A DNA stretch of 64,000 bases from a virus (IMGVR_UViG_3300027741_000025:80364-144363); one strand, 5' to 3'. Shown: positions 6,804 to 38,251, counted from the stretch's first letter. Notes: a model not told the origin generated them from the sequence alone. Numbers and translations: made by a program.

Positions 6804-9146
6804 TCAAGAAGATAAAATTTTATCTATATAAAAGCCAGACACATAATCGATTAGTATGTATAAGTAGTCATTCACATAATTAAATTTTAAGTCTATTATT
6901 TCACCATCACCGTAGTACAATAACGAAGTATTGGTCAAAGAAGAATTTATTTTATATAAACTGTTTCCATGAGAAGTATTCCCTGGGGCTCCACAGATAT
7001 AAACATAACCATTTTGTTCATCGATGTCCATGCTGATATGTTCCACGAAACTATTGGTCGGTTGATTATTCACTAAAGTGATAGAAGATCCAATAGTATT
7101 ATTGGAATTCACCAGAGTTACTTTTAATGTAATGTGTCCTGAAGAACTCCAATCATCATTGACTGTAGCAACATATGTCAAATCGTTAGTTGTGTTAGAC
7201 TTTATAGCTACGATATACTCACCAGAGGGTAGGGTCAATGTTTCTATTGCAGAGTTGTTGGATGTATTTATAATATGCACAACATTTGAATAAAAATTGG
7301 CTACATACAATTTATTAGAATGGGTGTTGATCTCCATAGAACCATTGGGATAAAAATCACCAGATATCGTGGTTAAAATAGAGGTTGTTGTGTAATTTCT
7401 AACTACTAATTGATTAAGACCTTCTGCTGTAAATATTTTATTGTTTACACTATCTAGCGCTGCATTAAATATAGCGTATGTGGGATCACCGTTTATTGTG
7501 GCGACAACAGAATCAGACGCTAAATCAATAATGCTGGCAGTTTTGCTTACATAATTTACAACTATTGCCTTTCTTTGAGTTCTATCCACACTAATAGTTG
7601 AGGGTTGAGCGCCAACAGTGATAACATTGCTGACAGAGTTGGTGTCATTATCAAAAACCCAAACAGTGTTGGTCTCTCCACCAGTACTGCCAGTGTTTAA
7701 TATATAAAGTTTGTTCGAAGTTGTGTCTAGATCCATTGCGTCTGGAAATGTCATTCCCAATAAAGTCAGGGATATTGGCGTGGCTGCTGGTGTAGCAGTT
7801 GGTGTAGGCGTAACAGTTGGTGTTTTAGTAGGTGTAGCACTTGGTGTAAGCGTAGATATTGCTGTTGCTGTTAGTGTAAGCGTAGGTGTTGCTGTTTGTG
7901 TATGTGTAGGTGTTGGTGTTGCTGTTTGTGTAGGTGTTGCTGTTTGTGTAGGTGTTGCTGTTTGTGTAGGTGTTGCTGTTTGTGTAGGTGTGGCAGTTAG
8001 TGTAGGTGTGGCAGTTAGTGTAGGTGTAGGTGTTGGTGTTGGTCTCACATCATCACAATCTCTCCAATCAAAATAATTATCAGAATAATATTTGAAGTTT
8101 GTTACTAATTCTCCTGCTATACAAGCTGATTGATTTTTTAAAACATTAACTCTTTTGCCCAATATGGCCACCACAGATCCCCCAATATTGATCCAGTCGT
8201 ACCCAGATTGCCGCATTACTCCGTCCTTGTAAGCAACTAACTCCAAATCAACATTGCCAGATTGTCTTGTGTTATACCAAAATGCTTTCAAAGAGCCGCA
8301 TATAGAAAAGCTATCACTATTAGAATCTCTTATATTTTTGATATACATAACAACGGATTCATAGCCAGTACCAACATTATCCCCGCCCCACTCATACCAG
8401 GGCAAAGCGGGTGCATCAGGGTATAAACGTTTTTTGCACCAACCAACTTCATGTCCCTGTTCAGAACCATAAGAAATTGATGTTCTTGTGTCTAAATCTA
8501 ATCCATCTAAGAACTTATATCTCACTACTATAAAATCGGCATCTATAAAACCTACATCTACTATTGGTGTGGCTGTTGGTGGTATAATTGTGGGCGATGG
8601 TGTTATCGGGCAGCAAGCACAATTGCATATAGGCTTAAGTTTTGTGCACTCCACCAGACTCTCAATTGCAAGCTTAAGTCCTGTGCCTTTTTCTACTCTT
8701 ATAACAACAGCATTGTTGCCATCTACTATATCGCAAGCATAGTTGTAGTTTTCGTTGTATGGAACAAGATCTTTTGTTCTTTCGTTCCACTCTCTGAGAT
8801 TATTCTGGAAGTAAAATCTGACGTCTTTGGATATCGGGCAAGATAATCCACAAAGATCAAAGTGCCCGAATTTATTTGGAATTTGATCGAGAGAGCCAGC
8901 ACCATAACAATCTTCCCAAGATATAAATATTGTATTAACACTAACGCCTTGTGTTGGCTCTGGTGTCGTGAGTGGACAACAAGACATATACTCCAGATTA
9001 TTCCAGTGTTTAACTCCATCGCCAATTTTCAATTTTCCCGTGTTTATCTCAAACCCAGGTTCACCCAAAGCTAAAATCGGATTAGCATCATACCACTCTT
9101 GAAAAGTTCCATTTCTCAGATGTATTTGCGTGAATGGCGTTGTCAT
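6804..9146 (-). CDS. Fibre protein: Mtd_N domain, shared modules, PT stalk, YVTN-type beta-propeller
   Basis: [40 protein letters not shown] (Mtd_N); NKLYV.N..SN.V.II blades. Confidence 0.75.
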
Positions 9147-9192
9147 AATTATAAATTATATAGTTTTTATCCGATTAATTGTCAAAAAGACT
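8620..9192. repeat. Copy 1 of ~550-bp direct duplication (partner 12524-13096)
   Basis: Long identical runs such as ttgtagttttcgttgtatggaacaagatctttt and tgtgtttatctcaaacccaggttcacccaaagctaaaatcggattagcatcataccactcttga. Confidence 0.95.
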
Positions 9193-9207
9193 AGCCTCTG
9201 CCTGCTA

Positions 9208-10452
9208 TCATGATACATATCCAACAAACTGAAGGCTATTAACTGATGATTTATTGTTTTTAATTTCCATCTTATAGTATCTATAAGATGCCGGGGATGT
9301 TATGTTATATTTATAAATCCCCGAATAGGATGTGTCCGACCCAGATCTATTATCAAGCGAATTCCATGTAGAATTATCATTTGATCCATATAAAGTCCAT
9401 GCTGTGAGTCTGTAGCCCCTGTTGTAGTTATCCGCATATATTCCACTTGTAATGTTGTAATAGCTTAGAGTGACGGCAACTCCGAAATCAAGATATCCAA
9501 CTCCTCCTGTTTCAAAAGGACCCCAAGCAGATCGGGAAAGATCATAATATTTGTTTAGAGAGCTTACGGAGCTACTTTGGTTAGGGAATAATCCAAAATC
9601 ACTACTAATATTTGCGCAATATCTAAACCCGAGATTTGAAAAAACTCTAGCGAAACTTGACCTATGACCTGTCCCAGGTGTTTCAACAAGAACAGAGCCA
9701 AAACCATCAATACATTTGGCTGTTGGAAACAATGTATATCCTCCATGAAGTTCACAAGGAGTACTAGGACTTTCATACCCCAAAATTTGCATTTCCCCAA
9801 TCTGAAAAGCTTGTTCATTACGCAGGTCAGACACACTTCGCCCGCCTTTAGTAACTATTAATCTATAGTTTTTATAAGCCGTAGCACCAGAAACAGAATA
9901 CTCTGAGTAAGAACAATTTCGGGCGAGCTTGCTTGTTGCGTTCGGAAATTTACCTTGAGATGTTCTGGCATCTACAGTTGTCCAAGTAACACCATCGTTT
10001 GTTCCAGACAAATACCAGTCTTGGGGAGTTTGGTCACTCATATCACCATATTGGTTTGTAATATCGTCAAATAGATTTCCAATAACCCCTGCTCCAAAAG
10101 CATTATACATCCTGTATTTTGTAATTACCACAGGAAGACCAAAACTAAAATATGCCTTAGATCTTGATACATAACCAGTTGTTCCTCCTCTCATTGAGTT
10201 TTTATAAAATGAATCATAAATACTTTGGTACGGCAAAATTCCTGTAAATAAATTATTAACATAATTTATACTTTTTGTAGTCCCATCAATTAAACTAGAG
10301 TTATTGTATCTATTTCCAGAATAAATTATTGCTTCTGTATTATTTACATAATTATCACTAACAGAAAATTTATAGTATGACTTATGAGTAGAACTTACGT
10401 GTGTGTTATCATACATTGTTCCTCCTCCTACTAAAATTCTTTCGGTCGGCAT
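9208..10452 (-). CDS. Tandem discoidin (F5/8 type C)-like domain protein
   Basis: Two copies of P.dW.l.GsNDg.tW..lD.R ... Y.yYrl; paralogue of the C-terminal half of 10462-13065. Confidence 0.75.
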   Translation of the reverse strand: MPTERILVGGGTMYDNTHVSSTHKSYYKFSVSDNYVNNTEAIIYSGNRYNNSSLIDGTTKSINYVNNLFTGILPYQSIYDSFYKNSMRGGTTGYVSRSKAYFSFGLPVVITKYRMYNAFGAGVIGNLFDDITNQYGDMSDQTPQDWYLSGTNDGVTWTTVDARTSQGKFPNATSKLARNCSYSEYSVSGATAYKNYRLIVTKGGRSVSDLRNEQAFQIGEMQILGYESPSTPCELHGGYTLFPTAKCIDGFGSVLVETPGTGHRSSFARVFSNLGFRYCANISSDFGLFPNQSSSVSSLNKYYDLSRSAWGPFETGGVGYLDFGVAVTLSYYNITSGIYADNYNRGYRLTAWTLYGSNDNSTWNSLDNRSGSDTSYSGIYKYNITSPASYRYYKMEIKNNKSSVNSLQFVGYVS

Positions 10453-10461
10453 AATTCACCT

Positions 10462-13065
10462 TTATGTTAAATAACCTTGTAATTGAATATCACTAATTTT
10501 TCCTAAGAAAAAAGTAGTAGAATTAACACCATCAGTAACGCCATATCTATTTGAGCTATCTGTAACAGATATCTTATAGTAAAAATAAGAGTCTGGTGAT
10601 GCTATGGCAAAAGTTGCCGAAGAACCAACTTCAACAAGGGTTCTGGTATCGAGCAGCGTCCATGAGTTAAATGTATTGGCTCCATATACTTTGAATGAAT
10701 ACTTTACCGGAGCGCCGGTAATGTTATCAAAATCAGCCCACATTTTATATGATGTTAATATTATTGGATAGTCAAATCCAAGATATCCATCTTTTGTTCT
10801 GTTTGTTGGCACCCCATTGGCACTACTTGCGACTTCAAAACTCCATTGACCTAGCTTAGCTAGATTTCCAGTTAAGCCAAGAATTGTTCCCATATTAAAT
10901 ACAGTACCAAAGGAATCAGAGTTTGTCAAAACACCAGAATTATTAAGATATTTAACTGTTGGTAATAATGTGTTGTATCCATGCAATGCACAAGGTGTTG
11001 TTGTGCTTTCATATCCCCAAAGCTGAATTTCACCAATTTGAGTATCATAATTACAGAGACCGAGTGTTGCTGTTGGTGTTGGAGTTTTGGTTGGTGTTAG
11101 AGTTTTAGTTGGTGTTGAAGTTTTAGTTGGTGTCGGTCCAGGCAATCTAGTTGTTGTTGTTGGTGTTGTTGTTGGTGTTGTTGTTGGTGTTGTTGTTGGT
11201 GTTGGCGCAAGGGTTTCTGTTGGATCGGGTGTTGAATCAGGTGGTGTTGGTCCCAAACATCTATAGCCATTTCTTCCCCCTGTAGAAATAACAAGTTTAT
11301 ATACTTTATAAGCTACAGGCGCCGGTATTGTGAATTCAGAGTAACTACTCAAACTTGGATCTGTTGATGTTGCATATGGCAATCTTGGTTGATTTGATCT
11401 GGTGTCAACTACATTCCAAGATATTTCATCGTTACTACCATGCAGCGTCCAAGCTTGCGGAGTTTGATTACCAATATCTACATATCTGCCTTCAACACCA
11501 TAATTAGCTAAAAATCCATTCCACATTCTATACTTTGTTACTACAGTTGGAATTCTAAAATCAAACAAAAATATTGGGAAAGAATTATTACTAAAGCTAT
11601 ATGAATCGCTTAACACATATTGAAGAGGAAGTTCACCATTAAGAATACAGGCATTGGCGGGATTTACTACAGTATTAAAATACTGTCTGTAGTCAGGATT
11701 TATTAATATTGGTGGATTGTATTTTACTCCACCACCAACCAACGCCCTAGGCGTGCCAGGCGCTGCTGTTAGCGTTGGTGTTGCTGTTGGACCAGGTGTT
11801 TTTGTTACTGTTGGTGTGGGCGTTACTGTTGGTCTGAGTGTTGCAGTCGGTCTAGGTGTTGCTGTTGGACCCGGCGTTTTGGTTGCCGTCACCGTTGGTG
11901 TTGGACCAGGTGTTTTAGTTAATGTTGGTGTTGGACCAGGTGTTTTAGTTAATGTTGGTGTTGGACCAGGTGTTTTAGTTAATGTTGGTGTTGGACCAGG
12001 TGTTTTAGTTAATGTTGGTGTTGCCGTGGGTGTTGCTGTTGGTCCAAGTGTAGCTGTGGGTGTTGCTGTTGGTCCAAGTGTAGCTGTGGGTGTTGCTGTT
12101 GGATAATAACAAACATCTATATTTGCTGTAAATGATCCGCTATTATCACCTCTTACATTATCGTTTGTTGCAAGGTAAAGTCTACCTGCTCCGACAGCAA
12201 AAGATTCAAAAGAAGACCCAGCACAAAACGGTTGACCGCTTAACCCTATTTTGGCAATAATTGCCTCATGTCTACATGGGCTTATAACATTGTCGATATT
12301 GTATAAAGAGTTTGGTAACTGGGCATCCGTTAGTCCATCCGGATCAGAATTATAGTTCGGGCTGTTCATGAACGAATTTACTATTCCGGTTGCATTTATT
12401 TTTAAGTAACCAGAAACATCAATTTCACTATCTTGCCAGGGTATAGTAGGATCAATAATAAACGATTTTTGGCAATAAGGAGTTGATGTTGGTGTTGGTG
12501 ATATTGTGGTAGGACAACAAGAACAATTGCATATAGGCTTGGGTTTTGTACACTCTACCAAACTATCAATTGCAAGCTTGAGCCCTGTACCTTTTTCTAC
12601 TCTTATTACAACAGTATTGTTGCCATCTACTATATCGCAAGCATAGTTGTAGTTTTCGTTGTATGGAACAAGATCTTTTGATCTTTTGTTCCATTCTTCA
12701 AGGTTATTTTGGAAGTAAAATCTGACATCTTTTGATACCGGGCAAGATAATCCACAAAGATCAAAGTGTCCGAATTTGTTTGGAATTTGATCGAGAGAAC
12801 CAGCGCCATAGCAATCTTCCCAAGATATAAATATCGTATTGACACCTGGTGTTGGCTCTGGCGTTGGCTCTGGCGTTGGCTCTGGCGTTGTGAGCGTACA
12901 ACAAGACACGTAATCGAGATCGTTCCAACTTTTAGTTCCATTGCCGATTTTTAATCTTCCTGTGTTTATCTCAAACCCAGGTTCACCCAAAGCTAAAATC
13001 GGATTAGCATCATACCACTCTTGAGAAGTTCCATTTCTTAATTGTATTTGCTTGAATATTGTCAT
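10462..13065 (-). CDS. Fibre protein: Mtd_N, shared module, LecA/PA-IL-like lectin, PT stalk, two discoidin-like domains
   Basis: Mtd_N motif; PWQDSEI...[19 protein letters not shown]...DNSGSF; [14 protein letters not shown]. Confidence 0.75.
11890..12105. repeat. 30-bp in-frame tandem repeats (PT stalk)
   Basis: gttggtgttggaccaggtgttttagttaat x4 plus gtgggtgttgctgttggtccaagtgtagct x2. Confidence 0.9.
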
Positions 13066-26054: not shown

Positions 26055-26468
26055 TTAGTATTTGTAACCCCTTACAACTTCTTCTTTTTTAATATTTGCT
26101 TTTTTAAAGAATTTTAAACTGGATTTTGTGTGAGGACATACTTTAATGCCTTCGCAGTTCATTTTTTTTGAAATATCCCTAGCCTTATTTAGTATTTTTG
26201 TTCCGTAGCCTTTTCTTCTAAATTTAGTCTTAACGTAAATGTAAGTTCTTATATTTTTACTATTCTTAGAAAGAAAATAATCGAGCATTGCCCATCCTAT
26301 TAATTCTTTTTCATCGAAAAGAGCTACTGCAATATAATTGTCTTCTTTTCTTTTTTTGCTTAAAATAACAGCCTCCCTCATATAATCTTCGCCCAAAGGG
26401 GTTGCTGCTACGAATATTCTTCTTAGTTTGGGCGAGCACTTTTTAACATCTCGAATTATCCATTTCAT
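26055..26468 (-). CDS. GNAT-family acetyltransferase
   Basis: IYVKTKFRRKGYGTKIL motif A. Confidence 0.8.
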   Translation of the reverse strand: MKWIIRDVKKCSPKLRRIFVAATPLGEDYMREAVILSKKRKEDNYIAVALFDEKELIGWAMLDYFLSKNSKNIRTYIYVKTKFRRKGYGTKILNKARDISKKMNCEGIKVCPHTKSSLKFFKKANIKKEEVVRGYKY

Positions 26469-26875
26469 TTTATATTCCTTTTTTCAAGATGTCTTTTTAT
26501 TTTTATCCTATCTTTCTTTTCAAGCAAGTCTCTGTCCATCTCCCAATGATGATTTTTACAAAGTGCAATTAAATTTTTAATATCATTTATTTCACTTATT
26601 AAAATATCACCAGTGAATGAACATATGTCTTTTATGTGACAAACATCAAAGTGCTTAAAATAACCGCAAACAACGCAATCCTTAGAAAGACCGCTTGCCA
26701 AGTATTTTCGCCTGGCGTCTTCTCTGATTCTGTTTCCCCTGCTCTCTGATCTTTTTTTATTCTGAGTTGCTTCTGTTTTTTGTTTTATTCTAAAACACAT
26801 TTTGCAATATGTGTATTTTGAAGCAATTGGATCAGAGCAAGTTTTACAGACTTTTTTTGATTTTATTTTCGGCAT
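26465..26875 (-). CDS. HNH endonuclease with N-terminal zinc finger
   Basis: CVVCGY..DVCHIK...NLIALCKNHHWEMD. Confidence 0.85.
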   Translation of the reverse strand: MPKIKSKKVCKTCSDPIASKYTYCKMCFRIKQKTEATQNKKRSESRGNRIREDARRKYLASGLSKDCVVCGYFKHFDVCHIKDICSFTGDILISEINDIKNLIALCKNHHWEMDRDLLEKKDRIKIKRHLEKRNIK

Positions 26876-27048: not shown

Positions 27049-30000
27049 ATGACATCAACAACTCCAATATCCGGTAATTTATTCGTTTGTGGGTATAATC
27101 GTACCCACCAACTTGGATTGCCCGATATTTGGAGCTCCTACTTTAGTTTATTAAAAACCAGTTCTGATCGATGGATAGATGCTGCTGCAGGCGGAACATA
27201 TTCGATTGCAATCCAAGAAGATGGCACTCTATGGGGAACCGGTGGTCTCCCAGGATACTCTGGGACGATTGGATTGGGAAGAACAACAACTGAAAGCTTT
27301 ACCTTAATCAACACAAAAAAATGGGTTAGTGTGGCTGCCGGTGTAAACCACACTATTGCTATACATGATGATGGAACACTGTGGGGCACCGGCACTAATG
27401 TTAACGGTCAACTTGGCTTGGGAAACACTAATAATGTTGATGAATTTACAAAAATAAGTAGCGACTCATGGATAGGTGCTGCTTGTGGCGCCACACACAC
27501 ACTTGCTATACGCAGTGACGGAACATTGTGGGTAGCAGGAGTGGGTTTTGACGGTCAGCTTGGGCTTGGTAACAGTGTTTCTACAACCTTTGGATCATTT
27601 GTGCAAATAGGAACAAGCAAGTGGAAAAGTGTGACTGCAAATTATATGAGGACAGTTGCAATACGCAGTGATGGTACTTTGTGGATCACCGGAGCCGGAT
27701 TCTCATCAAGGTCATATGACTTTATACAAATCAGTGAAAATACATGGGATAAAGTTCGTTGTAGCCTAGCTGTAAATCGTGTCGGGTGCGTTTTTGCAAT
27801 TCGTACCGATGGAACATTGTGGTGTTTTGGAGAAGGCGGAACTCTAGGTCTGGGTGATTACAACCGCCGCGACTCATTGACGCAAGTTGGTAATAACACA
27901 TGGAAAGATGTTAGTTGCCACAACAGTCACACCATGGCAATCAGAAGCGATGGAACACTATGGGCTACAGGAAATAGTTCGAACGGCAAGCTTGGTGCCG
28001 GGAGCGTATCTTTAAACCAATATTTAACTTTTATACAAGTGGGAACTTATCTTGATAATTATTGGTCAAAAGTAGTTACTGGTCCAAATCACACATTGGC
28101 GATTTCTCAACTGCCGCCGGCTCCAACACCTCCACCAACACCTGAGCCTGATACAGGAACTCCAAAAAATGGTTATTTATTTTCTGTGGGTTTTAGCCGC
28201 ACAAGCAAATCAATAACTAGTCCGTTTTCAGGACTAGGTAAAGATACAAACCAGTCTTATCTTTCGCAAATTGGAGCGGATGAGTGGGTAAGCATTTCTA
28301 GCGGTTTTGGACACACAGCAGCTATAAAAGCAGACCGAACACTTTGGACAACTGGTTATAATGAATTTGGACAATTGGGTCTTGGAGATAAAATAAACAG
28401 ATCTTCTTTTGTTCAAGTTAGCGCAGAATCTTGGTTGAAAGTGGCGACAGGAAACGCAGCAACATTTGCAATAAGGAATGATGGGACGCTTTGGGCAACT
28501 GGCGACAACCGAAATTTTCAACTTGGACTTGGCGATAATGAAAATAGGAAGAGTCTTACACAAGTCGGAACAGATTCTTGGGTTGATGTTTCATCTGGCG
28601 ATGGTCATACAATTGCTATTAAAAGTGATGGAACGCTTTGGGGGGCAGGATGGAACCAAATGGGGGAATTAAGTCTCACCGACGCAGATGGCAATCCAAA
28701 ATTATTTTTTCACGCAAGAGTTATGACTAAAATTGGCAATCAAACATGGAATTATATTTCAGCTGGTGGTAGGTTCATCATAGCAATCAGAAGCGATGGA
28801 ACATTGTGGGGATCAGGAGCCAATTCTTCAGGACAGCTTGGGCTTGGATTTAAAGATTTTAGTAAGACGACTTTAACTCAAATCGACAACGGAGTTTGGT
28901 CGAAGGTAGCTGCGGGTTTTTACAACACCTTTGCTATAAAAAACGATGGAACTCTATGGTGTGCTGGGGGTAATACATTTGGGCAACTCGGACTTGGCGA
29001 TAAAACAGATCGTGCTCGTTTAACTAAAATTGGAGTTGATTATTGGAGAGAAGTATATAATTACTGGGTAAACACCTTCGCCATCAAAGCAAATAAAACT
29101 CTTTGGATTTCCGGAGACAATAGGCTGGATGCTGACGGCGACCCTTACGGACTAATTCTAAATGGTGTAGATCGATCTTCTTTCAACCAAGTTGGAGTTG
29201 GCTGGACGAAGGTTTCTGGGAACAATAGGTGCATGTTGGCATTAAAAGAAAACATACCAACACCAACTCCAACTAATACACCGGGACCAACAGCCACACC
29301 AACTGCAACAAAATTTAAGATAACACCTACACCAACAACTACGCCCACCAAGACACCCGGACCAACAGCTACACCGACCGCTACAGCTACACCAACAAAG
29401 ACACTTGGACCAACAGCTACACCAACAAAGACACTTGGACCAACAGCAACACCAACAAAGACACTTGGACCAACAGCTACACCAACAAAGACACTTGGAC
29501 CAACTCCAACTCCTACTGTTAAAAATATTTCAAAAACTGCTCCTCCAACAAGAATTATATTTAAAAATTACACACAATTAGAATGGTATGATTCCAATCC
29601 CATATTAGCTGTTGGAGAAGCTGGTTATGAAAATGATGCTGGCGGTTTGAAATTTGGCGATGGAGCTAATCGTTGGAGAGAACTTCCTTACAGTTGCCAA
29701 AGAGGTGGATGTGTGGTTTCGACGCCAACTAACACTGCTACACCAACAGCTACACCAACAATAACAGCTACACCAACAATAACAGCTACACCAACAATAA
29801 CAGCTACACCAACAATAACAGCTACACCAACAATAACAGCTACACCAACAATAACAGCTACACCAACACTAACTGCTACACCAACACTAACTGCTACACC
29901 AACACTAACACCAACACCAACACTAACTGCTACACCAACACTAACTGCTACACCAACACTAACTGCTACAGCCGCAAACGAATACTACTGTGTTAGGTTT

Positions 30001-30927
30001 AGAACAACACAAACACCTACACTAACCAATACGGCTACTCCTACACCAACTAATACGGCTATAATAACTTCTACGCCTGCAATAACTTCTACGCCTGCAA
30101 TAACTTCTACGCCTGCAATAACTTCTACTCCAGCACCAACTCCTGGACCACATGCTGCTGATTTTATAGTAATAAATTATAATTATCCATCTGAGCTAGA
30201 TTTAAAAACTGATACAATTATCGATTATCCTGATGAAATTGGAAGAATAACTGCAGGTTCTTGTCGTATTATATTTGGAGAACCGGATATTAAAAGAGGG
30301 CAAATGATCTGGGGTGGGGCACCTGATGATGGAATTGATTCTTATCTTATAAATGTTAATAGCATATTTGTCCCCAGTTATACTACATTTACTTTATGTG
30401 TTTTCGCTAGGGCATTTTGGTACGCTAATCCGGATCCCGAAGGATCTTTGATCAGAATAGAACTAACTGCTTATAAGGGTGGAGAAATGAGTAAAGAAGG
30501 AACTCATTGGATAAATACTGGCGGAGAAATAATTTCAAGTGAAGATAAGACATATAAAGTTGACGGACCAGAACAACCCACATGTGATGGTGATTTCCAA
30601 AACTTAGTGCATATTAAATATCACGATAATGGTTTTGGTGCAGGTGCTGGCGTTGCTGACTGGATGGATCCAAAGGATCCACTTAAAACTTGCTATCCTC
30701 CTTGTTCCGGGACTTGTACTTATCACTGCGACACAGATAATGGAGGAACTTGGCGTCTTTTAAATAGTAATTGTTCTCCTATCAGCTATTGTGATTGTCA
30801 TCCAACATTAGTGCCTGAATGGGTAACAGAATGCGATAATGGATATTGCGAAGCAGGGTACCATGATCTTTGTTATATACCATGTAGTGATGAGTTTGGT
30901 GGGCATAGTCCTTGGACAAAACCATAA
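27049..30927 (+). CDS. Fibre/adhesin-like protein: two RCC1 propellers, PT stalks, internal Mtd_N, ADFIV module, Cys-rich tail
   Basis: About 12 AI.sDGTLW.tG.N..GQLG repeats; [17 protein letters not shown]. Confidence 0.8.
29380..30130. repeat. In-frame 30-bp and 18-bp tandem repeats (PT stalks)
   Basis: acaccaacaaagacacttggaccaacagct x4; acaccaacaataacagct x6; ataacttctacgcctgca x3. Confidence 0.9.
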
Positions 30928-31025: not shown

Positions 31026-32975
31026 ATGATGTCAGAAAGTTTTTGCATACCATCAAATGATTTTGATCCCAACATACACGAATTGATCGCCAAGCATTCA
31101 AATTCTCAAGATTGCAATGCAGGTTGCGGAGCCACACCAACACCAACTGCAACAGCTGTACCTACTAATACTACCACACCAACTAATACTGCCACACCAA
31201 CTAATACTGCCACACCAACTAATACTGCCACACCAACTAATACTGCCACACCAACTAATACTGCCACACCAACACCAACTAATACTGCTACACCAACAGC
31301 TACACCAACTAATACTGCCACAACAACACTAACTGCTACACCAACACCAACTAATACTGCTACGCCAACAGCTACACCAACTAATACTGCCACAACAACA
31401 CTAACTGCTACACCAACACCAACTAATACTGCTACGCCAACAGCTACACCAACTAATACTGCCACAACAACACTAACTGCTACACCAACAGCTACACCAA
31501 CACCAACTAATACTGCTACGCCAACAGCTACACCAACACCAACTAATACTGCTACGCCAACAGCTACACCAACCAATACTGCCACAACAACACTAACTGC
31601 TACACCTACTAAGACACCTGGATCAACAGCCACACCAAACTGTCCAGGCAGTAATTTGATACTAAATGGAGATTTTGAATTTGATGTCCCTCAATCTGAT
31701 GGTGGTACCGCCCAACATTGGAATGTGCACAATGTGGACGTAACATCAATAGAGCTAACGGGACCTAATAAAAATGTATGGATAGATTTAAATTCTTGCT
31801 CTCTAGGTTATATCGAACAGTCTTTTTCTACTATAATTGGAGAGAGCTATGTAGTAAATTTTAATATGGCGGCTAATAATCGATGCACCCCTTCTAATCC
31901 TTGCGAAGAAGGAAGGCAAGATAATACACAATACAGAAAAGAATTTTTTGTTAATTTTGCAAATACCTACTGGGTCCTGGTGTTTGATATGACCGATACA
32001 CCAAATTTAATTCCAGGTAGACAATACGATTATGCTGGGATGGGATGGATTCCACAATCCATGGTATTTACCGCAATAGATAATATTACAACTTTAAGAT
32101 TTGTAAGCAATTGCACAAATTGTGGCTGCTTTGGTCCAGCAGTAGATTGCATTCAAGTTTGTGGTATTCCAGGACCAACCATGACACCAACACCTACTAA
32201 TACATCAACTCCTACCGCCACACCCACTAAGACACCAACGCCCACACCAACTCAATGCCCATGCCCAGGATTTCCAGCATTTGATGGATCTTCATCTACA
32301 AGTGGAACATATTACAAAACATGCACCATAGTTGACAATGATACTTGTTCGCCAAATGGTAATAGAGTAGTAAGTTTTGTATGCGAACAAGGACAATCTG
32401 GAGTAGTAACTGCTGGCACAGGAAGCTATGTTGGTGATGTGGGACAAATTATATCTGTTCCCTCTTCTTGGTTGCAATCAAATCCTCTAAATACTGCGAC
32501 ATGGAATTCTGCAACATATGATGGTAATTGCGGAAATTCACTTGGAGATAAAATTTATTACGAACTTAGTGATTCTGTAATTGGTGTTTGCCCAACAGCT
32601 ACGCCAACACCCACCAAGACACCAACAGCAACACCAACACCAACACCTACACCAACTAAGACAGCAACACCCACACCAACTAAGACACCTACAGCTACAC
32701 CGACAGCCACACCAACAGCTACACCGACAGCTACGCCGCCGCGAACAGCCACACCAACAGCAACACCAACAGCTACACCAACAGCTACACCACCGCCAAC
32801 AGCCACACTAATGACAAGTACAGTTTGCTATGATGACGAGTGCAGGTCGGCGTGCGAAGTTAATTACTATGATGGTTCTTGTTACCATGAAGGCTTCTGT
32901 GGACCATCCGGTGCCACCAAGGTAACATTTACACTTGGCGGACTTCTAACAGATTGTTGCTGCGCCACCACTTAA
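31026..32975 (+). CDS. PT-rich protein with DUF642/galactose-binding-like domain and two Cys-rich modules
   Basis: NLILNGDFE...IDLN...IEQSFST..G..Y.V.F...FTA....TTLRF.S...GPAVD. Confidence 0.7.
31130..31640. repeat. In-frame 18-bp and 72-bp tandem repeats (TPTNTA stalk)
   Basis: ccacaccaactaatactg units and larger nested units. Confidence 0.9.
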
Positions 32976-33224
32976 ATTATTATCAAATTCAATACTATAT
33001 AAATTGTTAATGGATCCCATTTTTTTTATGTTTTTTAATATGTGGCGCAGCAACAATCTGTTAGAAGTCCTCCAAGTGTAAATGTTACTTTAATAACGCC
33101 GGAGCCGCTGCAGGAGACTTCATGGTAACAAGAACCATCATAGTAATTAACTTCGCACGCCGACTTGCACTCGTCATCATAGCAAACTGTACTTGTCATT
33201 AGTGTGGCTGTTGGCGGTGGTGTA
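32786..33224. repeat. 183-bp inverted repeat formed by the 3' ends of two convergent genes
   Basis: Arms 32786-32968 and 33042-33224, 16 mismatches by manual count; a more diverged second pair lies at ~32255-32600 and ~33500-33845. Confidence 0.95.
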
Positions 33225-36200
33225 TTAGTCGGTATAGCAGTTGGTGTAGCAGTTGGTGTCTTAGCAGGCGTGGCAGCAGGAGTCTTAGTTAGCGTTGGTG
33301 TTGGTGTTGGAGTAAATGTTGGTGTTGGAGTAAATGTTGGTGTTGGTGTTGGTGTTGGTGTTGGTGTCTTAGTTAGTGTGGATGTTGGCGTGGATGTTGG
33401 TGTGGATGTTGGTGTGGATGTAGCTGTTGGTGTTGGTGTTTTGGTAAGTGTTGGAGTTGGTGTCTTGGTAGGTGTGGCTGTTGGTCCTGGTGTAGCTGTT
33501 GGGCAAGGCCCACCAACTACCGGATTGCTGAGCGACCAATAAACTTTATCTCCAAGTGCATTTCCACAACTACCGTCATATGTTGCAGAATTCCACGTTG
33601 CAGTATTTAGTGGGTTTGATGTTACCCAGGAAGAAGGAACAGATATTGTTTGACCTACAAGTCCGTTATAGCTTCCTGTGCCAGCAGTGACTGATCCCAA
33701 TTGTCCTTGTCCACACACATAACTTATTGTAATGGTGCCATTCGGCGTACAAAGATCATTATCAATTATAGTGCATGTCTTGTAGTATGTTCCACTTGTA
33801 GATGAAGATCCATCAAATGCCGAAAATCCTGGGCATACACATCCAGTAGCTGTTGGTGTTGGAGTTTCTGGTCCTGGTGTGGCTGTTGGAGTAGCTGTTG
33901 GCGGGGGCGTAACTGTTGGTGTTGGTGTTATTGCACCTCCACAGCAAAAAGTTATTCCGTCTATTTCATTTGCCAAATTTCCTCTTCCTAAGCAGACATT
34001 GGTATCTGAGAGGACTATGTATTCAGTCACATCTGTGTGGCAGCGACTTATTGGAGGACCAATTAAACACTTTAATTTAGATGCCATTGTCACACAATTT
34101 TGCTCAGACGGTATTAAATTAAGCCCAGCTATAGTTTCTTCTGGTATTGTCACCACTTGTACAGACAAAATTGCGCCGCAGTCCGGAACACAACAATAAT
34201 CGGCTTCACAAGAATATGGAGATGTTGCAACAATGTTAGGCGCATCTCCAAAAGAATTTAGATTTATTTCTTCTACAAAAATTTCTTTAGATTCATCCCA
34301 TGTGCCACCAACTAAGCCTCCAACATAAAAATCATATTTTGCCAAATCACATGCATGACAAGCAGAAAAAACAAACTTCAAATTACTAATGCATCCTGGT
34401 GTGGACGTTGGTCCAGGTGTTAGTGTTGGAGTAGCTGTTGGTTCAAGTGTTTCCGTAGGGGTGGCTGTTAGTGTTGGGGTAGCTGTTGGTCCAGGTGTTT
34501 CCGTAGGGGTGACTGTTAGTGTTGGAGTTGGAGTTGGTCCAAGTGTAACTGTGGCTGTTGGAGTTGGAGTTGGAGTTGGAGTCTTGGTTGGTGTAGCTGT
34601 TGGCGTCTTAGTTGGTGTGGGTGTAGATGTAGGTGTTGCTGTTGGTGTAGCAGTTAGTGTTGGTGTTGGTGTAGCAGTTAGTGTTGGTGTTGGTGTAGCT
34701 GTTAGTGTTGGTGTAGCTGTTAGTGTTGGTGTAGGCGTTGGAGTTGGGGTGGCTGGATTTGGCTCACACCAAACTTGACAAGTACAACTGCTTGTGCAGT
34801 GCTTAGATGAGTCATAAGATAGATTAGGACATCTGCATCCTGGATTGCAGCCATCTTTATCTACTGTATACACATCATCTATATCCCAATAATAATCACA
34901 CACTCCACACGGACCTGTGGTTGGTGTAGGCGTTGGTGTTGGAGTAACATAATATCCCATACAAAACTCATTGCTGTAGCACAAATATTTTGGCAAAATT
35001 GTGGCAGTTGGAGCTGGGGTGGTGGTGGGAGTAGCAGTTGGGGTTGGTGTTGGCAGTAATGGACAATAGGTAATAGAAGAATAATAATAACCGCTATTAT
35101 CTAGTACATATATGTCATTTGGTCTTAAATAAAGTCTGCCTGCGCCTGGACTTCCTGTGTAACTTGAACCTACTGAAAAAGGAGATCCAGATCCTATTCT
35201 TCCAATAAGTTTCATATGACACTCAGAAGGCATTGGAGAAACACCGCCAAAGTTAAAACATCTAAGACCTATAGGGGTAGTATCTCTATCTATTCCATCT
35301 GGATCTGCTATATCTCCGGCTTCGTCCCAAACTGCTGTTCCTGTAGAAGATATTGCTATCGTACATTCGGGGAGTACATCCACACCAGTATCTTGCCAAT
35401 CTCTGGCACAATCCACAGTGAAGTTTGTTGTTATTGTCCCAATATCCATTTTTTCAAAATTAATATAAGAAACAGGGGGAATAATGCTCGAAGAAAGTTT
35501 ATTTTCAATGTTTTCACATACCAATTCAGATTCGGAAACTGACAAAGAAGCCGGATTAGGAACTATCAATTGTGTCTCAGAGTCAAGATCTACAGATATA
35601 ATTTTACAACTACCATTTGCCCATTTCCACATATCATAACCCTTGGTTGGATCCATACCAAATCTTTTACTTGGTGGAAAAGTAGCATTCAATCCAGGCT
35701 CCCACTCCTTGGTCATGTCATCTAAAATTGTGTGAATTCCATCTGCTTTTAGCCCTGTGTTTATACCTACGGTATAGTATTTATTCCATATCAGAGCAGG
35801 ACCTATTACATCCAGAACAACTGTGCCCGTAAAGTTTTTTCCAGAATAAATAGTGAGTCTTGAACCAGAATATATGGCAATTGAGTCAAATGTTGTGTTG
35901 GCAGCATGATTAAAAGCTAAATTATTATCAGGATATTCTCCTATAGAAACATAATCATCTGCATCCAATTTACAATTTGTAGTATGATCATCAGCAAATT
36001 GAGGTCTTTCGTACCAGGTGCATAAAATATGATCGTTAAACAATGCCCCAGTAAAGTGAACATCTCTTGCCCCCAATTCAGGCTTAGGTGTCGGAGGTAT
36101 TACTATGCACTTTTGAGGACAAGCCATTCTAAAACAAACTTGACAATTAACATCAGATGTTACAGAAGGTGTGGATGTTGGCGTTGAGGTAGATGTTGGC

Positions 36201-37576
36201 GTTGAGGTAGATGTTGGCGTTGAGGTAGATGTTGGCGTTGAGGTAGATGTTGGCGTTGAGGTAGATGTTGGCGTTGAGGTAGATGTTGGCGTTGAGGTAG
36301 ATGTTGGCGTTGAGGTAGATGTTGGCGTTGAGGTAGATGTTGGCGTTGAGGTAGATGTTGGCGTTGAGGTAGATGTTGGCGTTGGTATTGGCGTTGAGAC
36401 GGGTATTAAAGATTTTATCGCCATTGTAAAAGCAGAACCAGGACCCACTAAAACCCATGTATCAGATCCTATCTGAACTGGGTCATATCGATCAGAGGTT
36501 GTATTGTCTCCAACTTGTCCGCTGGAGTTATATCCCCATGCCCATAGTGTACCATCACTCTTTATGGCAGTTCCGTGGTTCCAACCTACTCTTGCTGATA
36601 TCCAAGCATCGGATCCTATTTGTACAGGATGATCAACATAATAAGGGCTACTTATTCCATTTCCTAGCTGCCCTGATATATTAACTCCCCACACCCACAT
36701 TGTGCCATTATTTTTTAACGCCACACTATGTTCACCAACATGAGCATAAGCCGATTGCCAGTCGGAATCAGATCCTATTTGAACAGGCGAATACCTATCT
36801 ATGTTTGTTCCATCTCCAAGAGCCCGGGAACTATTTTTACCCCAAGCCCAGAGTGTACCATCACTTTTTATTGCAACGGTATAATTTCCCCCTGCACTCA
36901 CCAAATTCCAAGCATCAGATCCTATTTGAACAGGTGAGTGTTTTCCAACAGTAGTTCCATCTCCAAGTTGTCCGTATGTGTTATCTCCCCAAGCCCATAG
37001 TGTACCATCAGTCTTTACTGCAAGAGTGTGTTTAGCTCCAGTGGTCACAAAATTCCAAGCATCAGATCCTATTTTAATAGGCACAAGACTACCGGTGACT
37101 GTTCCATTTCCAAGATTTCCATGTGTATTATCTCCCCAAGCCCATAATGTTCCGTCATTTTTTATAGCAAGAGTGTGATTGTTTAGAAATTCACCTTTTC
37201 CAGTACTTGCCAATTTCCAAGTGTCAGATCCTATTTGAATAGGCACAAGACTATCAGTGACTGTTCCATTTCCAAGCTTTCCATGTGTATTATCTCCCCA
37301 AGCCCATAATGTTCCGTCATTTTTTATAGCAACGGTATAGCCATATCCTCCACTAACTGATGTCCAATGATATGATCCTATCTGAACAGGCGAATATCTT
37401 TCAGTAGTAGTTCCATCTCCAAGTTGTCCGTATGTGTTATCTCCCCAAGCCCACAACACTCCGGACGAATTGGTTTGTATTGATAAATCATTTTCAAGAT
37501 TAATAAAAGGCTTAGGTGTTGATTTTGCAACACTTTGATTTTTAGAAACTCTATGTATTTTCTTTATCTCAAACAT
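33035..37576 (-). CDS. Large fibre/adhesin-like protein: RCC1 propeller, PT stalks, LecA-like domain, several Cys-rich modules
   Basis: 7 [13 protein letters not shown] repeats; DWQDTGVDV...LIGRIG..PF.VG...[13 protein letters not shown]. Confidence 0.8.
36174..36384. repeat. Perfect 18-bp tandem repeat x11
   Basis: gatgttggcgttgaggta repeated with no mismatch (TSTPTS). Confidence 0.95.
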
Positions 37577-37606: not shown

Positions 37607-38251
37607 TCAAGGAGATATAACTCTAATTAAACTTCCATAAATAATTGCATAACCTGTATGAGAGTCAGCAGTGCTAGGTTTTGACACACTAAAACTAACT
37701 ATAGTTCCCTCATAAATTGCATTTTGTGGAATTTCCAAAACATGCCTTGCTCCCGAACTGTTACTCTGAAGTATGGAGTCTTGGTAATAAGCCTGATAAT
37801 CTTGATGATTTCCAAACCTTATCACAGGACTATCTCCAGGAGATTGTATTGTTTTGGTCACAATCTCCATGGAATCTATTAAAAACATAAAATCAGGGGG
37901 AACTTCAAATATATCCGTCTCTACGATAGTTTTAAAATCTATTACCGAAGATCTGACTGAGGTCTTTTGAACAAAATCAGCATTATCACCTAAAATTAAA
38001 GGACTTGACGCTTGATTTGCATAGTTTAATTGTGACCAATAGTGTATTCCGTCGCCTATTTTGTACAAACCTGTGTCTATTTCAAAACCAGGCTCACCAG
38101 AATCCAACAAAGGATCTTTATTAATCCACTCTTGGGCGGTTCCTCTTCTGAATTGAATTAATGCTTTTAATTCTCTTTGATAACTCACCTCGCGTGGCGT
38201 GATAGAATTTGATACTCTTGGTCTTAATTCGCTCATTTTTTGCTCCATCAA
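37607..38251 (-). CDS. Mtd_N-domain protein with beta-sandwich C-terminus
   Basis: IQFRRGTAQEWINKDPLLDSGEPGFEIDTGLYKIGDG..W..LNY. Confidence 0.8.
   Translation of the reverse strand: MMEQKMSELRPRVSNSITPREVSYQRELKALIQFRRGTAQEWINKDPLLDSGEPGFEIDTGLYKIGDGIHYWSQLNYANQASSPLILGDNADFVQKTSVRSSVIDFKTIVETDIFEVPPDFMFLIDSMEIVTKTIQSPGDSPVIRFGNHQDYQAYYQDSILQSNSSGARHVLEIPQNAIYEGTIVSFSVSKPSTADSHTGYAIIYGSLIRVISP

Follow-up and report, generated by a model that had tools for sequence, protein, structure and literature searches.

Two convergent genes with a common C-terminal cassette

The DNA analysed here (IMGVR_UViG_3300027741_000025:80364-144363), referred to below as the window, forms the last 64 kb (64,000 nt) of a 144,363-nt virus record in IMG/VR and contains two convergent genes, A and B, each of whose products ends in a copy of the same cysteine (Cys)-rich cassette. 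The terminal module of this cassette is almost identical in the two genes, silent positions included, except for ten codons in its middle, and it is the origin of this pattern that concerns us. The record derives from a large tailed phage and encodes a head maturation protease, a major head protein (phrog_138, E=2.8e-85), a large terminase, baseplate wedge proteins, a tape measure protein and a primase, with PhoH, a deoxynucleoside monophosphate kinase and helicases also encoded within the window. Its completeness was put at 29% by CheckV, whose estimate for the whole genome is about 500 kb, so that all searches for recombinases, reverse transcriptases and third copies reported below cover the 144-kb record, that is, about 29% of the genome. 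The 12 sequencing runs that contain part of the stretch are all environmental metagenomes (nine from freshwater, two labelled 'metagenome' and one from wastewater), and the top four, with 0.73-0.87 of the sampled words, are all from freshwater.

Gene A (31026-32975, + strand) is an open reading frame (ORF) of 649 amino acids (aa) which consists, from N- to C-terminus, of a short N-terminal part, a long Thr/Pro linker, a DUF642-like domain (Pfam, E=1.3e-6), a linker, module 1, a further linker and the terminal module with eight Cys. Gene B (33035-37576, - strand; 1513 aa) begins with an RCC1 propeller (E=2.4e-75) and a Ser/Thr/Pro linker; several domains that are unassigned or rich in Cys come next, and the protein ends in module 1, a linker and, again, the terminal eight-Cys module. 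The two stop codons are 59 nt apart. The AT-rich spacer between them (32976-33034) contains a small hairpin with a stem of 5 bp (33009-33021), after which comes a run of T, and no consensus terminator has been reported in it.

The cassette common to both proteins is therefore made up of module 1, a Pro/Thr linker and the terminal module of about 57 aa. Module 1 occupies 32256-32594 in gene A (+ strand; 113 aa, six Cys) and 33500-33841 in gene B (- strand; 114 aa), and in gene A the linker between the modules runs from 32595 to 32786. The terminal arm of gene A (32787-32972, + strand; 62 codons) comprises the end of the linker and the eight-Cys module, and is mirrored by the terminal arm of gene B (33038-33223, - strand). 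The terminal module follows the pattern C-x4-C-x3-C-x8-C-x5-C-x18-CCC, which continues as ATT in gene A, and the ten divergent codons, among them that of the fifth Cys, form patch A (32892-32921, + strand) and patch B (33089-33118, - strand). A repeat search recovered the same organisation as two pairs of inverted repeats, the first between 32232-32586 and 33511-33865 (355 nt, 79% identity) and the second between 32751-32976 and 33034-33259 (226 nt, 88%, 57 nt apart), so that the tail-to-tail genes with the same two Cys-rich modules at their ends, as given in a preliminary description of this DNA, are confirmed by both ORFs and repeats. A third copy of the arm was sought in the 144-kb record at the DNA and at the protein level, and just the two arms matched.

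Genes A and B lie in a block of big Thr/Pro-linked proteins (4-38 kb of the window), three of which start with an Mtd_N-type tail-fibre N-domain in Pfam and PHROGs (6804-9146, 10462-13065 and 37607-38251). The label of fibre genes, which the preliminary description had given to A and B, stands as far as this context goes, but is not carried by the two proteins themselves, whose matches in Pfam and PHROGs are limited to DUF642, RCC1 and one low-complexity linker family. We consider A and B to be different modular, Pro/Thr-linked surface proteins encoded in a tail-fibre block, and probably adhesins.

Neither module 1 nor the terminal module belongs to a Pfam or PHROGs family. A sequence search of the PDB with the modules gave nothing below E=0.2, and the ESM Atlas held no usable match for either. 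An exhaustive HMMER search of 1.84 billion representative proteins returned two matches for the terminal module, both of them long proteins of tandem repeats in which 10 and 20 stretches matched, and both judged spurious. No relatives of this module were found by protein-pattern scans of IMG/VR, by a scan of GTDB genomes or by a search for longer homologues, and the 18 stretches of IMG/VR that matched a degenerate DNA motif for TDCCCAT were all chance matches. Dedicated searches found no relatives of module 1, and none of the DUF642 part in IMG/VR. Residues 205-649 of gene A, used as a query, gave 1004 matches, mostly to Pro/Thr linkers, and the module motifs occurred in none of the 122 proteins screened (120 listed among the 1004, together with the two HMMER matches). 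Both modules thus appear to be orphans, and the functions proposed for them below are predictions made from sequence. An AlphaFold2 model based on a three-row alignment was set aside (mean predicted local distance difference test score, pLDDT, 43.5; predicted template modelling score 0.24); the position that it gives to the patch, in a turn joining two strands, is not evidence at such confidence.

Near-identical arms around a divergent patch

Aligned without gaps outward from the stop codons, the two arms differ at 16 positions of the 182-nt tract 32787-32968, of which 14 fall inside 32893-32921 and the others at 32845 and 32939. This concentration of 14 of the 16 differences within 30 nt had already been noted, and the counts, coordinates and peptides given at the time were correct. 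The last sense codon (ACT versus TAT) adds three differences, and when the resulting 19 coding differences were placed at random in 186 nt, none of 20,000 placements reached 14 in a 30-nt window, the maximum being 12 and the mean 6.2. Patch and flanks differ strongly in this respect, whether all differences are considered (Fisher's exact test, p = 2.6e-11) or third codon positions only (7/10 in the patch versus 3/52 in the flanks, p = 2.5e-5). Between the two patches, 14 of 30 nt, nine of ten codons and seven of ten third codon positions differ, and the proportion of silent differences (pS) is 0.83. The near-identical flanks measure 105 nt on the 5' side of the patch and 47 nt on the other side, with one difference each. 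The 5' limit of the tract is the 3' end of the linker (around 32786/32787), and differences between A and B reappear at 32785 and farther upstream; the linkers themselves are of unequal length in A, B and the orthologue of gene A described below.

Silent and replacement changes, counted by the Nei-Gojobori method, allow the ages of the segments to be compared. The flanks (52 codons) contain two silent and three replacement changes, and their silent divergence (dS) is 0.057 (two silent changes in 36 silent sites), in agreement with the earlier remark that the flanks are almost identical even at silent sites. Module 1, in contrast, is 78.7% identical at the nucleotide level between A and B, with a dS of 0.55 and a replacement divergence (dN) of 0.16. 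Were the flanks as old as module 1 (pS 0.39), two or fewer silent changes would be expected with a probability of 4.8e-6. The terminal frame therefore appears to have been copied between the genes well after the two copies of module 1 diverged.

A different history is suggested for the patch. That it consists of fresh, selected point mutations was rejected, because seven of its ten third codon positions differ, and its sequence is best read as old or imported divergence. A 7-nt inverted match next to this segment (TGTTACC / GGTAACA, by patch A) was also considered and dismissed as chance, being weaker in B and missing in the orthologue of gene A.

Independent contigs and relatives

A scan of metagenomes returned five loci (L013-L017), three of which (L015-L017) share nothing with the terminal module but the word VCYDDEC, inside an unrelated 400-aa protein. 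L013, a contig of 1800 nt from another metagenome, is 99.72% identical to the window and collinear with it, beginning in gene A and crossing patch A and the spacer to reach patch B. Population data were taken from Logan contigs (k=31) of four runs, in which phasing across the 105-nt near-identical flank is impossible; in two of the four (X1 and X3), contigs of 285 nt span 32863-33147 without a difference. Given L013 and these contigs, misassembly, which had been raised at the outset as a possible source of the pattern, is excluded, and the arrangement is not an assembly artefact. The breaks between unitigs near 32892, 32922 and 32951 are those expected from identical flanks around differing patches.

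In L013, and in the covering contigs of X1, X2 and X3, patches A and B are the same as in the window, which argues against a hypermutation that is still running. In a further run, X5 (a metagenome of 2022), a 108-nt contig matches 32919-32976 with six differences, and its first 30 letters, where the patch would lie, do not fit; it may represent a further, fourth loop allele. The B arm of L013 has three extra differences (33050, 33130 and 33140), which lie within 115 nt of the end of the contig; one of them removes a conserved Cys, and none is shared by L014.

Site 32845, at which gene A has a guanine and gene B the other state, is polymorphic: X2 and X3 have an adenine, the state of gene B, on contigs of 130 nt that extend 24 nt into gene A's own linker, and no reciprocal change at 33165 is listed for these runs. 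This is a pattern that conversion would produce and, at a single site, it hints at such a process. It bears as well on an alternative, already put forward in the preliminary description, in which reciprocal recombination at the 105-nt 5' flanks would invert patch A, the spacer and patch B without an invertase, swapping the loop and the last residue between A and B, so that the population would hold both pairings. The substrate for such a flip-flop is in place, as the flanks of 105 nt and 47 nt (one difference each) are separated by 59 nt, and an inversion would leave both reading frames intact and would need no invertase. None was found in the 144 kb, where Resolvase (PF00239), for serine invertases, and Phage_integrase (PF00589), for tyrosine recombinases of the Rci type, had no matches, the controls being positive in 13 and 14 of 14 genomes, respectively. 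Still, the two assemblies that span the junction, the window and L013, have the same orientation, and the change at 32845 without its reciprocal row at 33165 looks non-reciprocal, even if an unlisted row is no proof. Contig joints to the opposite strand do occur, but they fall in Pro/Thr linker repeats (32656/33434 and 32686/33901) and not in the arms. Moreover, no RecA/UvsX-type recombinase was found in the 144 kb. We regard an ongoing inversion of this kind as doubtful. The linker DNA at 32570-32656 and 33266-33526 also recruits contigs of many other organisms, with a summed depth in the thousands in all four runs, and depth and joints there are therefore uninterpretable.

Among the relatives, L014 alone is informative on the terminal module. 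It forms the beginning of a 44.9-kb contig from a metagenome and carries the 3' part of an orthologue of gene A. Over 93 codons its module 1 is 98.9% identical to that of gene A at the nucleotide level, with no silent and three replacement changes, whereas its terminal flanks have a dS of about 0.9 to A and about 1.3 to B. All eight Cys are retained in its terminal module, and the loop set on this same Cys frame is unrelated and six residues longer, with 18 residues between the fourth Cys and KVTFT compared with 12 in A and B, so that the patch does vary among relatives, as was suspected earlier. L014 matches gene A again over the last 27 nt, stop codon included, and over about 33 nt of the spacer, and synteny stops near 33008, beyond which there are unrelated genes on the + strand and no gene B alongside. 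It follows from this pattern that the exchanged unit is bounded by the linker and by ...TDCCCATT, and that whole terminal modules are swapped among close relatives at the linker and the conserved 3' end.

The contrast between paralogue and orthologue is thus reversed from one region to the other. In the flanks dS is 0.057 between A and B and about 0.9 between A and L014, while in module 1 the values are 0.55 and 0. The tip of A is like that of B and unlike that of its own orthologue, which is the signature of non-reciprocal copying between paralogues, and the gene conversion between the two C-termini that the preliminary description had put forward is supported by this reversal.

A second relative, L041, is an IMG/VR contig syntenic with window positions 45900-37568 over about 8 kb, at 80-93% aa identity. 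Its orthologue of gene B (8876-11932) keeps the first seven residues and one central domain, and its other domains differ, from which we conclude that whole domains are swapped at Pro/Thr linkers. In the position of RCC1 it has a sulfatase-modifying-factor-like domain, and in its middle a different beta-propeller, both as read from the sequence and not from a family scan. The orthologue stops after an internal Cys-rich module, without module 1 or the terminal module, and has no gene A next to it; a search of the L041 record for the cassette gave linker-like matches only. The convergent inverted pair is known from the window record and L013 alone, and since two relatives do without it, the arrangement is young.

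These data also bear on an explanation by one-off events, in which a single recent copy of the terminal module, made through homology in the linker and at the 3' end, would have been followed by one short exchange of the loop for that of a third allele not seen here, whether in a co-infecting relative or in the missing 71% of the genome, with no continuing process. It fits the same mosaic data and is in keeping with L014, where whole terminal modules have been exchanged (dS 0 in module 1, about 0.9 in the terminal module), with the youth of the arrangement and with patches that are identical across near-identical populations. It requires, on the other hand, two events with breakpoints just 29 nt apart, and the polymorphism at 32845 that matches the paralogue hints at more exchange than this. 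We consider such a history unlikely, and note that it differs from recurrent copying of the frame in tempo only.

A further explanation would be hypermutation directed at the loop, through a diversity-generating retroelement or something similar. The variation in L014 speaks against it, as the loop differs there in length, an outcome that template-directed adenine mutagenesis does not give. Retroelement mutagenesis affects the first two positions of AAY-type codons, and the usual variable regions are longer than the 29-nt patch. Here the differences include seven of ten third positions and runs of up to four adjacent bases, and the patches are invariant in L013 and X1-X3. There is also neither a match to RVT_1 (PF00078) nor a template-like third copy of the arm, as DNA or as protein, in the 144 kb, although a distant element is conceivable given the part of the genome covered. 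What recalls such systems is that a short C-terminal stretch is the sole strongly variable part of a phage surface protein, as in Mtd of Bordetella phage BPP-1 (PMC6182149), and that Mtd_N-type domains are found in neighbouring genes. On balance, targeted hypermutation seems the most improbable of the explanations considered here.

Proposed copying of the terminal frame and the status of the loop

The reading that we favour, at a probability of roughly 0.58, is that the frame of the terminal module has been copied non-reciprocally between the two tips, with the loop remaining divergent and exchangeable. According to this proposal, the C-terminal cassette would first have come to be shared by A and B, and the terminal scaffold would have been recopied from one gene to the other long afterwards, either by gene conversion or by strand-switching during replication within the near-palindrome. 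The copied tract would begin at about 32787, where the linker ends, and reach to about 32968, two codons short of the stop, and the ten middle codons around the fifth Cys would either have stayed outside the copying or have been replaced later. The resulting mini-domain may be pictured as a disulfide frame that stays constant and displays a single, exchangeable loop, the conserved flanks of which would offer homology for swapping loops and whole tips. We infer that copying was recurrent rather than a single event and that the loop has been kept apart by selection or by dense mismatch. By analogy with the design of gp38 adhesins, discussed below, and because its sequence and length vary while the Cys frame is fixed, the loop is predicted to set binding specificity, in line with the suggestion of a specificity loop in the preliminary description.

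Several points weigh against this proposal. The patch contains only about eight silent sites, and its excess over the pS of module 1 is weak (p of about 0.01-0.05). L014 is the one informative relative for the terminal module, so that the polarity and the number of copying events cannot be fixed, and a single recent segmental copy together with one short patch replacement fits the data equally well. The polymorphism at 32845 concerns a single site and could be ordinary mutation, and the extra differences in the B arm of L013 may be errors and give no clear support for conversion. As rare variants are dropped from contigs, minority loop alleles and orientations would be invisible. It is just as conceivable that the cassette anchors both proteins to the virion and is not their receptor-binding end.

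As regards the route of copying, single-stranded DNA from 32780 to 33230 folds at -205 kcal/mol (z-score, z = -33), and this very stable near-palindrome means that a substrate for intramolecular strand switching exists. This makes strand switching in the course of replication a plausible route, alongside classical conversion. The same stability raises the alternative that the identity of the arms is kept by selection on a hairpin or cruciform, serving for example as a two-way transcription stop or as a ribonuclease III site in read-through transcripts. The 91-nt centre, folded as RNA, reaches -20.6 kcal/mol (z = -3.9), and a two-way stop would suit convergent genes with no consensus terminator reported in their spacer. 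However, the 29-nt patch in the middle of the stem pairs at just 15 of 29 positions, each messenger RNA carries its own arm only, barring read-through, and the relatives do without a partner arm. Selection on the hairpin would also leave unexplained why the paralogues resemble each other more than the orthologues do, and we hold it to be very unlikely.

A more far-reaching version of frame copying can be imagined, in which general recombination or strand switching between the identical flanks would keep re-pairing the ten-residue, disulfide-framed loop with the two quite different adhesin bodies and would draw further alleles from co-infecting relatives, amounting to an enzyme-free switch. We offer it as no better than speculation that is probably wrong; if true, a single phage lineage would keep a modest set of reshuffled tip specificities, with neither an invertase nor a retroelement.

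Among known systems, copying of a frame around an exchangeable loop finds its nearest counterpart in the gp38 adhesins of T2/T6-type phages. As described in PMC3157838, these carry short hypervariable segments between conserved glycine-rich motifs in a small C-terminal specificity domain, and recombination in or near the conserved motifs yields chimeric adhesins; Tetart et al. are named in the reference list of that article. In A, B and L014, likewise, the loop varies in sequence and length, its flanks are conserved and the breakpoints of exchange lie in or beside these flanks. The differences are that no gp38 family was found in the Pfam and PHROGs scans of A and B, that the frame is built on eight Cys instead of glycine-rich motifs, and that it holds one loop where gp38 has four. 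Furthermore, the domain is here fused to large multidomain proteins, gp38 being a separate small adhesin, and the partner for exchange lies in the same genome, as a second copy in inverted orientation.

The inverted arrangement also invites comparison with the invertible segments G of phage Mu, C of P1 and P of e14. These are flanked by short crossover sites and switched by a serine invertase (Gin, Cin and Pin, respectively) encoded beside the segment, as invertase genes normally are, with the constant 5' part of the gene outside and alternative 3' parts inside. The likeness lies in the inverted repeats at the 3' parts of fibre genes, where recombination would exchange C-terminal parts that determine host range. 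Here, though, both genes are complete and their bodies unrelated (RCC1 versus DUF642), the arms are coding and 182-226 nt long, and an inversion would turn round no more than the 59-nt spacer with the patches and the 3' flanks. No alternative orientation was seen in the contigs.

A third point of reference is the concerted evolution of paralogues in inverted orientation, whether through gene conversion or through template switching in quasi-palindromes. It matches the present case in that the paralogues A and B are closer to each other than the orthologues are, that the tract has sharp limits, that the inverted arms are closely spaced and that the site polymorphic in one copy, 32845, shows the state of the other. 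It differs in the island of saturated divergence in the centre of the converted tract, which calls for selection against tracts spanning it, for a barrier due to mismatch density, or for later replacement. The case is, taken together, a variation on known phage adhesin mosaicism, with an orphan disulfide-framed tip that is present twice, in inverted orientation, in one genome, its frame homogenised and its one loop kept apart. In a limited search of the literature, which is not proof that none has been published, no like case of gene conversion in tail-fibre genes turned up.

Exchange at conserved motifs is a known way in which the host-range parts of phages evolve. For uncultured giant phages there are few clear examples, and the known ones concern other protein folds. 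The present locus offers a compact Cys-framed tip domain with no detectable homologue among the 1.84 billion representatives, one loop of which is singled out as exchangeable. As the domain occurs twice in one genome, the pair preserves a record of frame copying as well as of the retention of different loops. If the loop binds the host, the frame could be used to read or engineer specificity in this group of phages, and the inverted pair would be a natural system in which conversion can be measured against inversion between close repeats. If it does not, the locus is an ordinary example of mosaic fibre genes.

Other genes around the locus deserve brief mention. Upstream of gene A, the region 27049-30927 of the window encodes a protein of 1292 aa. 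Two RCC1 propellers and long arrays of tandem Thr/Pro repeats are present in it, its Cys-rich C-terminus is a different one, and an Mtd_N-like fibre domain in the middle of this protein (aa 836-873, E=1.1e-5) is just under the Pfam cut-off. Directly upstream of the fibre block there are a GNAT acetyltransferase-like ORF (26055-26468) and an HNH endonuclease-like ORF (26465-26875). Outside the window, a transposase-like ORF (phrog_506, E=1.8e-58) at 32966-34123 (- strand) of the 144-kb record adjoins the primase gene.

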